From Eledone cirrhosa (Eukaryota): 64,000 bases of DNA. Positions 3,129-62,287 of this stretch are shown piece by piece (position 1 is the stretch's first letter; every line of letters begins with the position of its first letter). Where the stretch lies: contig OZ024743.1 of assembly GCA_964016885.1 (NCBI GenBank), positions 340,814,001 through 340,878,000 of the forward strand, in the 5' to 3' direction. The notes below the pieces were generated by a model. That model was not told the DNA's origin and did no database searches. It was given only the letters and a program-made list of their open reading frames with translations. Made by a program: the position numbers and the translations under genes.

Positions 3129-4463
3129 AGAAATTGGAATAAATGCTCTGAAATAGCGATATATATGTGAATATAGACATAGAATATTCGAAAATATTCT
3201 GTATGTTTATAATAAACATTTTGAAGACCTAATCGCTATAGAATAGAATACGTCACGTATTACAATTAGATTCTCGATAAAAGCAAGGGAAGTAATCTAC
3301 GCGTTTCATTCTCGTTAGAAATCATCAGGACTACATATCCAGTGCTTTTATCGAGAATGACACAGCTAGAGACTTATAGAATACTTAGCTGTGTACAGGA
3401 ACTGGTTTGAAAGAGCGGTTGCCGGTCCGGCAGAAATTAGAAATTGGAATAAATGCTCTGAAATAGCGATATATATGTGAATATAGACATAGAATATTCG
3501 AAAATATTTTCGAATATTCTATGTCTATATTCACATATATATCGCTATTTCAGAGCATTTATTCCAATTTCTAATTTCTGCCGGACCGGCAACCGCTCTT
3601 TCAAACCAGTTCCTGTACACAGCTAAGTATTCTATAAGTCTCTAGCTGTGTCATTCTCGATAAAAGCACTGGATATGTAGTCCTGATGATTTCTAACGAG
3701 AATGAAACGCGTAGATTACTTCCCTTGCTTTTATCGAGAATCTAATTGTAATACGTGACGTATTCTATTCTATAGCGATTAGGTCTTCAAAATGTTTATT
3801 ATAAACATACAGAATATTTTCGAATATTCTATGTCTATATTCACATATATATCGCTATTTCAGAGCATTTATTCCAATTTCTAATTTCTGCCGGACCGGC
3901 AACCGCTCTTTCAAACCAGTTCCTGTACACAGCTAAGTATTCTATAAGTCTCTAGCTGTGTCATTCTTGATAAAAGCACTGGATATGTAGTCCTGATGAT
4001 TTCTAACGAGAATGAAACGCGTAGATTACTTCCCTTGCTTTTATCGAGAATCTAATTGTAATACGTGACGTATTCTATTCTATAGCGATTAGGTCTTCAA
4101 AATGTTTATTATAAACATACAGAATATTTTCGAATATTCTATGTCTATATTCACATATATATCGCTATTTCAGAGCATTTATTCCAATTTCTAATTTCTG
4201 CCGGACCGGCAACCGCTCTTTCAAACCAGTTCCTGTACACAGCTAAGTATTCTATAAGTCTCTAGCTGTGTCATTCTCGATAAAAGCACTGGATATGTAG
4301 TCCTGATGATTTCTAACGAGAATGAAACGCGTAGATTACTTCCCTTGCTTTTATCGAGAATCTAATTGTAATACGTGACGTATTCTATTCTATAGCGATT
4401 AGGTCTTCAAAATGTTTATTATAAACATACAGAATATTTTCGAATATTCTATGTCTATATTCA
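3129..4463. repeat. 310-bp HHR-containing unit: 377-bp inverted arm (3129-3505) joined without spacer to about 3.1 tandem copies (3506-4463), flanked by (AT)n
   Basis: ATCGCTATTT recurs at 3541, 3851 and 4161. The palindrome centre is AAAAT|ATTTT at 3505/3506. I saw one substitution between copies (3968). Confidence 0.95.
3654..3740 (+). ncRNA. Minimal type I hammerhead ribozyme motif (also 3964-4050 +, 4274-4360 +, 3271-3357 -)
   Basis: GTAGTC-CTGATGA-t TTCT aacg AGAA t-GAAA-CGCG-TA^GATTAC. Stem I GTAGTC/GATTAC is extended by a 15-bp helix TTCTCGATAAAAGCA/TGCTTTTATCGAGAA. Predicted cleavage is after GUA at 3713. Confidence 0.85.
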
Positions 4464-4543
4464 TATATATATATATATATATGTGTGTGTGTGTGTATAT
4501 ATATTGTGTATATATATATATATGTGTGTGTATATATATTGTA

Positions 4544-4835
4544 ACAAGTACATATGTTGTTGAGGTGTACAATTTTGTCAATACTTTGATATGTCCAGTT
4601 CCTGGTTGGGTTGTTATTTCACTGAGGAACTGGAATAACAACCCAACCAGGAACTGGACATATCAGAGTATTGACAAAATTATACACCTCAACAACATAC
4701 GTACTTGTCTATACCACACTAATTCGGACTGCCTGAAGAAGTCACAGCCAAAGATGGCTGTCACCGAAATATATATAGCAGTAATAAACGAAGCTAAATT
4801 TTAAACATTTGACTTTTTATTTTACTTTAATTTTA
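4544..4835 (+). mobile_element. Short PLE pLTR-like element with inverted 5' arm (4544-4634 vs 4634-4708); second copy at 61345-61562
   Basis: Inverted repeat followed by HHR and AATAAA, starting at an (AT)/(GT) array. Confidence 0.75.
4728..4782 (+). ncRNA. Type I HHR motif (copy at 61456-61510 +)
   Basis: ACTGC-CTGAAGA-[ACAGCCA aaga TGGCTGT stem II]-GAAA-TATATA-TA^GCAGT, then AATAAA. Confidence 0.8.
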
Positions 4836-60800: not shown

Positions 60801-61647
60801 TATACTACCTTTATTTATTAACAAATTATGAAATCCAAATCTGACGATGTCGCCAGGATCTTACGTAACCAGTCTATTGAAATACATATTGAGTCTTTGC
60901 AACAATAAAACTTTAAACGAACATAACCAGTCCGGGCTTCTGTTATTTTAATCGAATTAATATACATACATGATGATGGCTTCCCCCTCGTTATCGAGTA
61001 TGGCCATTGCACGATATACCATTATTAATAATTATTAATTAATTCGATCGTGCAATGCCTGTGCGCGAAGACATTTTTTAAAGTGAGGAAAGATTGTGCA
61101 CTGAGCCAATCCCACGCTCTAAACGACAGTAGCTATAATCCGAAAAGAAGAAAAGATCAACATCATCGGTAACTACTGAGCCGCAGGTTTTATATCGGAG
61201 TTATCCCAGTATCCTGAGTTGCCTTCTCCTAGAAGAATGCCTTGACAAAGGCTAGGAGTCCTTCACTCCCAGTGGTTTAACCGCGCGGTACATGTGTATA
61301 TACATATTTACACACTATATAAATATATATCTATACATATATGACTCCAGTTCCTCAGTGAATTAACAACCCAACAAGGAACTGGGCATATCAGAGTATT
61401 GACAATATTATACACCTAAACAACATATGTACTTGTCTATACCATACTAATTCAAACTGCCTGAAGAGGTCACAGCCAAAGATGGCTGTCACTGAAATAT
61501 ATATAGCAGTAATAAACGAAGCTAAATTTTAATCATTTGACTTTTATTTAACTTTATTTTTTATATATATATATATATATATATATATATATATATATAT
61601 ATATATATATATATATATATATATATATATATATATATATATATATA

Positions 61648-62287
61648 TGAATGTATGTATAGTATATTTGGTGATATACTGTATGTTTAATTACAAAAGT
61701 TTTGAAGACCTTGCGCTATTATTTTTAAGTAGTGACTATGTCACTTCTTTTTTCAGCAAAGGAAGGGTGATAAGCTGACAGATTTGTTTCACACTGTTGG
61801 TGTTCATCAGAGCCTAGTACCCGCCGACCCCTGCCGAAAATTATACAGGCTGGATTCTCATAGAATTCCAGTAATAATCAGGAACTGATTATACAGAGCG
61901 ACTGCCGGTCCAGCAAATATACTATACATACATTCATGTATACATCGCTATTTCAGAGCACCAATTCTAATTTTTATTTTTTGCTGGACCGGCAATCGCT
62001 CTGTATAATCAGTTCCTGATTATTACTGGAATTCTATAAGAAACCAGCCTCTATAATTTTTGGCAGAGGTCGGCGAGTACTTGGCTCTGATGAACACCAA
62101 GAGTGTGAAAGAGATCTGTCAGCTTATCTCCCTTCATTTGCTGAAAAAAGAAATAAGTGACATAGTCACTACTTTAAAATAATAGCGCAAGGTCTTCAAA
62201 ATGTTTTTAATTAAACATACAGTATATCACGAAATATACTATACATACATTCATGTATACATCGCTATTTCAGAGCACCAATACTAA
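61648..62287. repeat. 317-bp HHR unit: inverted arm (61648-61917) plus about 1.15 tandem units, (AT)n both sides; HHR at 61772-61815 (-) and 62083-62124 (+)
   Basis: ATCGCTATTTCAGAGC at 61944 and 62261. HHR reads GGCT-CTGATGA-ACAC caasa GTGT-GAAA-sArATCTG-TC^AGCT. Confidence 0.88.

Follow-up and report, generated by a model that had tools for sequence, protein, structure and literature searches.

We analysed a 64,000-nt window of the Eledone cirrhosa genome (contig OZ024743.1 of assembly GCA_964016885.1, positions 340,814,001 to 340,878,000 of the forward strand), a microsatellite-rich stretch of 36% GC in a 3.0-Gb assembly, in which an earlier inspection of the letters alone (the sequence-only reading) had proposed a dense set of hammerhead-bearing, non-coding mobile families. 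The most informative feature, which is absent from that reading, is the way in which one of these families, the retrozyme family A, is inserted: its tandem units form two inverted arms with one outer end of each of two fixed classes, both in (TA)n microsatellites. We regard it as probable that such two-armed arrays arise when the enzyme of a Penelope-like element (PLE) starts a cDNA from each of the two nicked target strands, with a single RNA, probably circular, as the template for both.

In the window, the left arm of family A (3128..3508, minus strand, 1.2 units of 310 nt, core start 3328) extends about 170 nt beyond the ribozyme cut at its outer 3′ end, which carries a tail of about 35-40 nt, and adjoins (TA)n at 2897-3129. 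The right arm (3503..4463, plus strand, 3.1 units that are 99-100% identical, cores at 3683, 3993 and 4303, predicted cuts after 3713, 4023 and 4333) has its outer 3′ end 130 nt past the cut, also adjoining (TA)n, and the two arms join at a palindrome near 3503-3508. Together with this copy, the first 10 arrays found on C1 by their ribozyme and 14 loci (from 13 stretches) chosen by their +165 end gave 25 family A loci. Twenty-three are two-armed, with arms pointing outward and joined 5′-to-5′, one is single-armed and one runs into an assembly gap, which makes 23 of the 24 resolved loci two-armed. All outer ends adjoin (TA)n; they fall into two classes, 125-139 nt and 163-170 nt beyond the cut, and every two-armed locus has one end of each class (23/23); among the loci not selected by an end the rule holds in 10/10, with a chance probability of about 0.001. 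The position of the junction varies from locus to locus; a few bases are often shared there, and the junction sometimes lies in a self-complementary stem. None of the 46 junction ends lies within 10 nt of the cut (3.1 expected), and 40 of the 46 arms are longer than one unit, arms crossing the cut site many times; cut linear monomers were therefore not the template. Arm lengths, from 0.26 to 27.3 units, fit an exponential distribution with a mean of about 5.5 units (Kolmogorov–Smirnov p 0.92) and are uncorrelated between the arms of a locus (rho 0.23, p 0.29), the longer arm being the +165 arm in 12 loci and the +130 arm in 11 (n=23).

Eleven haplotypes occur among these loci, and the complete units within a locus share one. 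Both arms carry the same fixed variants in all eight informative loci, which have seven different haplotypes among them; the two arms thus copy the same RNA haplotype. Minority (private) variants amount to 30 in 183 units, or at most 0.05%, and so family A is very young and its long arrays are not old. Two of the loci fetched from the assembly (labelled in the form L051), L055 and L057, have arrays of up to 10+7 units with no private mutation in any complete unit. The eight fixed variants within the ribozyme all lie outside the invariant core, and those in helices preserve pairing or extend it, a modest tendency (p about 0.07).

Families A, B and H are non-long-terminal-repeat (non-LTR) retrozymes as that class is defined by sequence. 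Their head-to-tail units measure 310 nt (A, up to 27 units), 316 nt (B) and 420-484 nt (H), each with a single, compact type I hammerhead with a 4-bp helix II, and the longest ATG-initiated open reading frame (ORF) has 30 aa in A, 29 aa in B and 97 aa in H, whose unit contains an AT run. The units fold favourably as circles (z -3.5, -7.7 and -7.1 for A, B and H), and A and B are 68% alike overall and 80% over unit positions 69-214, which hold both ends. PLE ORF matches occur in 9 of 62 loci. Among the four inspected, the PLE and the retrozyme are separate, neighbouring insertions in L129, L121 and L248, and in L115 an assembly gap lies between the A arm and a Neptune-like copy (this label and Penelope/Poseidon-like come from motifs, not from a reverse transcriptase tree with references); the other A-locus matches lie outside the arrays. 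As a separate observation, family A is one unbranched 340-base contig, closing on itself with a period of 310, in the assembled runs X1 and X2, which are labelled as different organisms; X2 has little family H, and X3 has hundreds to tens of thousands of variant contigs of A and H. Because the run types are unrecorded and cross-contamination is possible, we conclude nothing from these runs.

The one-of-each rule extends beyond family A. It holds in 4/4 resolved two-armed H loci (ends at 217 and about 270), in the B copy of the window (128 and 166), and in most resolved loci of the ORF-bearing PLE families C (11/11), G (7/7), D (6/7) and E (2/3); copies of family N have one end class only. An inverted, 5′-truncated copy with a tail on one end, a feature of PLEs, is what the counts for C, G and D describe. 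Family A suggests that, in PLEs generally, a single concerted event of priming at two ends gives rise to both the inverted copy and the tail.

On AT-rich DNA, the purified Poseidon protein of the anole, which is predicted to be dimeric, cleaves and extends each of the two strands; its cDNAs begin at two sites within the RNA, and the distance between these sites gives the 30-40-nt tail (PMC11167929). The insertions of family A look like the genomic trace of this reaction acting on an ORF-less RNA. In the mechanism that we propose, read-through array transcripts would self-cleave and then be ligated into 310-nt circles; the short palindromic helix III makes cleavage by ribozyme dimers probable. 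For comparison, one of nine Xenopus dimers cleaved in a recent study (bioRxiv 10.64898/2026.07.22.740005). A Penelope/Poseidon-type protein with reverse transcriptase (RT) and GIY-YIG domains, probably a dimer, would bind the part of the unit in which A and B are most alike (positions about 70-215). Both strands of the self-complementary (TA)n would be nicked and one cDNA begun at each of two internal sites 35 nt apart, each RT would circle the template until random drop-off, and the cDNA ends would be joined, often at short complementary patches. As each insertion leaves (TA)n on both sides, the process would feed local nesting. We consider it very likely that the mover of family A is a PLE, and probable, with less assurance, that the template RNA is a circle. 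A bolder picture is a real but tentative possibility: a PLE dimer sitting on one retrozyme circle, with one start and one strand per subunit and both rolling at once, would make every insertion a bidirectional rolling-circle product. In that picture family A continues to move, and the genome, at over 150,000 hammerhead cores, ranks among the most ribozyme-dense animal genomes described.

Several observations weigh against the proposed mechanism. Cleavage and circularization of family A RNA are predictions from its sequence, and an uncut linear multimer, read through from an existing array and double-primed by the same PLE enzyme with any circles as by-products, fits the architecture nearly as well: it accounts for haplotype sharing, both end classes and the crossing of cut sites. 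In the anole assay, which was performed in vitro, insertion was not reduced by ribozyme mutations; cleavage proved dispensable, and the enzyme used mainly unprocessed RNA (PMC11167929). In a 19-unit A arm, two variants recur at a distance of 7 units; in two other arrays a variant recurs in units that are not adjacent; and in one H array (L159, G000:C1:19314300-19317800) two unit types alternate (ABAB, then a partial A), as would be expected of a dimer template. Such block repeats could not be made from a monomer circle, and point to occasional dimer templates, linear multimers or later expansion at the DNA level; the ABAB array and the repeated variant blocks would fit a heterogeneous source array. 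Even so, if linear multimers were copied again and again and truncated at random, arrays should become shorter each generation, yet arms of up to 27 units occur and no upper limit is apparent; the ribozyme core is retained in source haplotypes; and minority variants are not position-matched between the arms of L051, L052, L059 and L120, a weak point given that the sources would be nearly uniform. We think a linear template unlikely, though well short of negligible. Growth at the DNA level, in which a short PLE-type insertion came first and the arrays and second arm were added by unequal crossing-over, slippage or snap-back, is favoured for tandem growth, in the form of local amplification, by one preprint (bioRxiv 10.64898/2026.07.22.740005), and the 7-unit block repeat and repeated minority variants do show some secondary expansion or conversion. 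Snap-back as the origin of the second A arm was rejected, for it predicts that one end class is always the shorter and that the junction ends lie close together, whereas arm lengths split 12:11 and junction phases are mostly far apart; the arrays of L055 and L057, with no private mutation, also speak against growth at the DNA level, and we give this explanation little credence.

The class of the mover leaves less room for doubt. LINE (long interspersed nuclear element) ORFs of RTE, R4/Dong and CR1 type are all present in the window, and the 5′ end of the L159 H array joins LINE-like sequence directly. LINEs can also produce inversions: in L1 twin priming both target ends prime on one RNA, giving an inverted 5′-to-5′ insertion with microhomology at the junction, much as in family A. 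In family A, by contrast, both starts are fixed and internal, 35 nt apart, and an arm can be many units long. Two fixed internal starts, a tail on exactly one arm and (TA)n targets all occur in the ORF-bearing PLEs of this genome too and have been described as PLE-specific (PMC11167929, PMC8557442), and poly(A) ends are absent, so that movement by a LINE seems very improbable. Against the PLE mechanism itself stand a search for the partner PLE among eight PLE ends, in which only an A-to-C ribozyme match was obtained (26/28 bases, E 4.5e-6) and B and H matched none of the eight; the start spacings, which differ between A (35) and C (68); the exceptions to the end rule, D at L220 (156/156) and E at L040 (57/57), with F messy and inconsistent; and about 270 foreign bases between the A arms of L119 (L119:98-370), unmatched in any fetched locus and possibly a captured RNA. 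The A loci outside the window, moreover, all come from the first 56 Mb of one chromosome.

How animal retrozymes re-enter the genome is an open question, and family A gives readable insertion-site evidence on it: its ends are fixed and of PLE type, each arm has a single start site and each locus a single haplotype, drop-off lengths are random, and the copies, young and nearly identical, number in the thousands. Retrozymes, hammerheads at PLE ends, inverted copies, tails and (TA)n targeting have all been described before. In the papers that we consulted, mobilization of retrozymes by PLEs is argued from co-occurrence and from homology of pseudo-LTRs (pLTRs), retrozyme repeats are said to show no motif that identifies their mover (PMC7761336), and reverse transcription on a circular template is proposed without insertion-site evidence. 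Exact start positions (+130 and +165) and a candidate protein-binding region are now supplied by family A, and make the PLE and rolling-circle hypotheses testable. Families A, B and H share with the metazoan non-LTR retrozymes of coral, mussel and axolotl ORF-less tandem units of 150-450 nt with one type I hammerhead each, a 6-bp helix I, a 4-bp helix II, a short palindromic helix III, GC below 50%, a self-paired circular fold and co-occurrence with PLEs (PMC7229834, PMC7761336; bioRxiv 10.64898/2026.07.22.740005). The retrozymes of those papers are described as head-to-tail tandems, whereas at nearly every A locus a pair of multi-unit arms, inverted relative to each other, ends at fixed PLE-type positions in (TA)n; circular RNA has been demonstrated for the former, whereas A, B and H are known here from the genome. 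Neither retrozyme arrays with two multi-unit arms, nor the one-of-each rule, nor octopus hammerheads are described in the open literature that we searched; subscription papers, Repbase, Dfam or preprint supplements may contain these families or retrozymes in fold-back form. The words 'inverted', 'microsatellite' and 'cephalopod' do not occur in the accessible text of PMC7229834, and ribozymes are not mentioned in that of the main text of the Octopus vulgaris repeat paper (PMC13282606). The three retrozyme families and the PLE families are a new set of members within known kinds.

The hammerhead motifs themselves are real. A type I descriptor (CUGANGA, helix II, GAAA, a short helix III, UH and helix I), used in a relaxed form, finds 16 motifs in the window against 0.15 and 0.22 in global and 500-bp local dinucleotide shuffles (200 each) and none in the reversed or complemented window; a stricter form finds 13 against 0.04-0.06, and a variant that requires a closed helix III finds four. 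The 16 cores start at 3328-, 3683+, 3993+, 4303+, 4733+, 34558-, 41164+, 42547-, 42791+, 43765-, 44231-, 44602+, 56275-, 61461+, 61810- and 62087+ (signs give the strand). Two further intact cores, 20172- and 52188-, fail the helix rules and are recognizable family members, and variant or broken copies lie at 10495+, 45068+, 54773-, 19401-, 57465-, 37390- and 40427+. Helix I has at least four of five pairs in 22 of 24 matches found by the core alone in the window and 300 kb of genome, where pairing was not selected for, and in 0/2 such matches in reversed sequence. Among 37 distinct motifs with a 14-nt helix II (families A, H and relatives; one of 38 was omitted because it straddles a junction), both sides change in 9 of 13 pairs, with a covariation score of 0.526 against 0.199 when shuffled and at most 0.092 for slid structures; relatedness of the motifs inflates this test, and the slid controls are far lower. 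Of the 16 window motifs, 14 have a (TA)5 run in the 300 nt downstream of the cut (background 0.33), as do 22 of 26 sampled motifs (background 0.24-0.32). An Rfam search of the window (E 1) gave no hammerhead among the 150 of 208 matches listed, which are microsatellite-driven microRNA matches. Self-cleavage of the window motifs is predicted from their cores and helices.

The sequence-only reading survives these comparisons in part. Of its 18 intact-core sites, 16 pass the descriptor and the other two are the intact family members just named; the sites are real, but their coordinates were off by up to about 130 bases. The sites it placed near 42415 and 42782 proved genuine though unusual, with a 105-nt helix II and nine pairs in helix I, and the comparisons with shuffled sequence and for covariation that it had suggested came out in its favour, as did its (AT)n flanks. 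Its fold-backs, tandems and PLE machinery are borne out by the two-armed arrays, the tandem units and the PLE fragments of the window. The PLEs with remnants here may also be the movers of A, B and H, as it had inferred, though the comparison with eight PLE ends gave no more than the A-to-C ribozyme match.

The density that it had judged unusual is partly a property of the genome. The window holds 250 motifs per Mb, about three times the value in a sample of forty-eight 10-kb stretches taken at round coordinates (38 motifs in 480 kb, or 79 per Mb, where shuffled sequence gives about 2.2; the four largest chromosomes account for 28 motifs in 280 kb, smaller ones for 10 in 200 kb), and the 10-kb stretches flanking the window on both sides contain no motif. 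The local excess thus stands, whereas the load itself is genome-wide and not unique to the window. One core pattern has 168,241 matches in the genome against 10,365 for its reverse, giving at least about 158,000 cores, or 53 per Mb, for one hammerhead subtype; 120,000 hammerheads have been reported in axolotl, more than 6,000 in coral and about 5,000 in mussel, with descriptors that differ from ours (PMC7229834). Exact genome-wide counts are 4,033 for A (exact copies of the 43-nt ribozyme), 10,573 for H, 12,882 for C, 11,191 for D, 6,214 for E, 8,064 for F (exact copies of the 3′ part of the hammerhead) and 29 for B (exact copies of a 28-nt core pattern, including one tandem pair). Motif counts per sampled stretch follow (TA)n content (rho 0.56). 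Flanks of family A adjoin the end of another PLE, retrozyme or repeat in 18 of 44 usable cases, as against 121/444 for any TA run and 28/300 for random positions. These nesting counts fit the view that insertions accumulate in one another's TA tails, which would account for the high local density.

The sequence-only reading had treated all its families as non-coding. This holds for A, B and H (10 of 18 sites), which are ORF-less; D, E, F and N (6 of 18 sites), together with C and Q, are ends of autonomous PLEs, and the two G sites are 80-85% like one. 'No ORF' is thus correct for the local copies and wrong for most of the families: independent longer loci of C, D, E, F, N and Q continue upstream of the ribozyme into ORFs for RT and GIY-YIG, so the window copies are 5′-truncated PLE tips and not ORF-less short-tandem retrozymes. 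G-type motifs terminate the ORF-bearing elements L141-L143, 80-85% like the window copies, and the N copy is 87-88% identical to elements L101-L103, with ORFs of 822-987 aa. Reading frames of 630-987 aa occur in L091, L097, L101-L103, L224 and L262, and the ORFs seen in the fetched loci have RT followed by a C-terminal GIY-YIG domain, as in endonuclease-containing (EN+) PLEs. Pfam matches of these ORFs to RVT_1 and GIY-YIG are weak and below cut-off, homologues carry PF00078, PF26215 and PF01541, and the Pfam search missed the GIY-YIG fragments in the window. Two GIY-YIG queries returned 28,758 and 60,799 first-look candidates genome-wide, which, with the ORF lengths, suggests a very large and recently active PLE population.

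These families resemble EN+ PLEs of the Penelope/Poseidon and Neptune types in having RT with a C-terminal GIY-YIG, a hammerhead near the 3′ end, heavy 5′ truncation, an inverted truncated copy, a one-ended tail and AT-rich or (TA)n targets (PMC8557442, PMC4209133, PMC11167929). They differ from those reported in their tails, which measure 58-140 nt in the present coding families rather than 30-40 nt, in the 105-116-nt helix II region of family F, and in truncation at hot spots, which yields thousands of short copies. Truncation clusters just upstream of the ribozyme, within about 12 nt in C, at 121-124 nt in 5 of 7 E copies and at 56-70 nt in 8 of 26 D copies, and the PLE tips consequently look like short non-coding families; the search patterns for coding families required the core, so that truncation at the cut would not be visible there. 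These hot spots may mark points within the terminal repeat where transcription begins, or points where the RT stops. The stop point of family D is a start-codon-containing motif that we take to be YY1-like. The F hammerhead combines its 105-116-nt helix II region (105 nt in the window) with a perfect 9-bp helix I (z -4.4; 42791+ and 42547-; L259-L264). Other motifs with a long helix II (50-97 nt) occur in the sample at L037, L049 and L287, with a broken one in the window at 17991-.

The remaining retrozyme copies of the window comprise one two-armed insertion of family B (316-nt unit, 61649..62286, cores 61810- with end +128 and 62087+ with end +166) and three copies of H. The two-armed H copy, with an internal AT run in its 420-484-nt unit (43520..44940, cores 43765-, 44231- and 44602+), ends at unit positions 217 and 273; the second (56000..56380, minus strand, core 56275) lies within the 3′ region of a family C PLE, and the third (19299..19593, minus strand, core start 19401) has a broken core, GAAA having become GAAT. 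The Penelope/Poseidon-like family E is present as a truncated 3′ end in a fold-back (4541..4932, core 4733+, parent ORF in L266, L268 and L234) and as another truncated end (61346..61562, core 61461+, end +56). G-type truncated ends lie at 20070..20830 (two-armed, core 20172-) and 41085..41262 (plus strand, core 41164). Family D has a two-armed truncated end at 34362..34790 (core 34558-, end +156, parent ORFs in L217-L223) and a degenerate copy at 57311-57630, and family F a two-armed truncated end at 42363..43112 (cores 42547-, end +61, and 42791+, end +198; 630-aa parent ORF in L262, also L259 and L260).

Longer PLE remnants are also present. A 5′-truncated Neptune-like PLE (1..1830, minus strand) retains the GIY-YIG end of its ORF at 1075-1785 (93% aa identity to L101), with a CX5CxxC linker and a 3′ untranslated region (UTR) that runs off the window, and family N is represented by the 3′ UTR of a Neptune-like PLE (52060..52850, minus strand, minimal hammerhead core 52188, end +92 in (TA)n). 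The two-armed family C PLE at 54648..57240, whose right limit is approximate, has the core 54773- (end +99) in its left arm and, in its right arm, a long 3′ UTR rich in AT and an ORF fragment (54790-55462) with 78-92% aa identity to the ORF, 758 aa long, found in L224. A chimeric origin of 54648-55877 from two families was considered and rejected, as the ORF fragment belongs to family C. Truncated C ends lie at 45055..45197 (plus strand, core 45068) and about 10480-10629 (core 10495). The Penelope/Poseidon-like family Q (37129..40540) is two-armed, with a tail of about 140 nt, a GIY-YIG fragment at 38239-38973 and cores at 37390- and 40427+, C3 being changed in both.

Another common family forms fold-backs whose ends, of two classes, lie in (TA)n (19838-20033, 20907-20971, 22122-22317 and 53510-53680); it keeps a GAAA-containing hairpin, has CUGANGA in no fetched copy, and is probably another PLE tip truncated inside the ribozyme. 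Near-perfect palindromes without an intact core, several of them (TA)n-bounded (16428-16808, 16838-17694, 36764-37061, 43236-43400, 1993-2158 and 9607-9680), are likely to be more two-armed PLE-type insertions. A SINE-like (short interspersed nuclear element) repeat of about 190 nt, which may resemble an octopus SINE, occurs in eight copies (6626-6821, 15436-15631, 15828-16016, 22554-22735, 36248-36358, 45756-45942, 51947-52051 and 53055-53207); ARAGORN found no tRNA. The LINEs include a near full-length, frameshifted copy at 28233-31807, with an endonuclease, a 600-aa RT frame and C-terminal zinc fingers, which we take to be RTE-like, and others that we take to be R4/Dong-like (24641-26083 and 27369-28259) and CR1-like (12931-13524). 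Lastly, a repeat family in several copies (26213-27200, 32356-33015 and 60962-61287) is tied to (ATGT)n, not to (TA)n.

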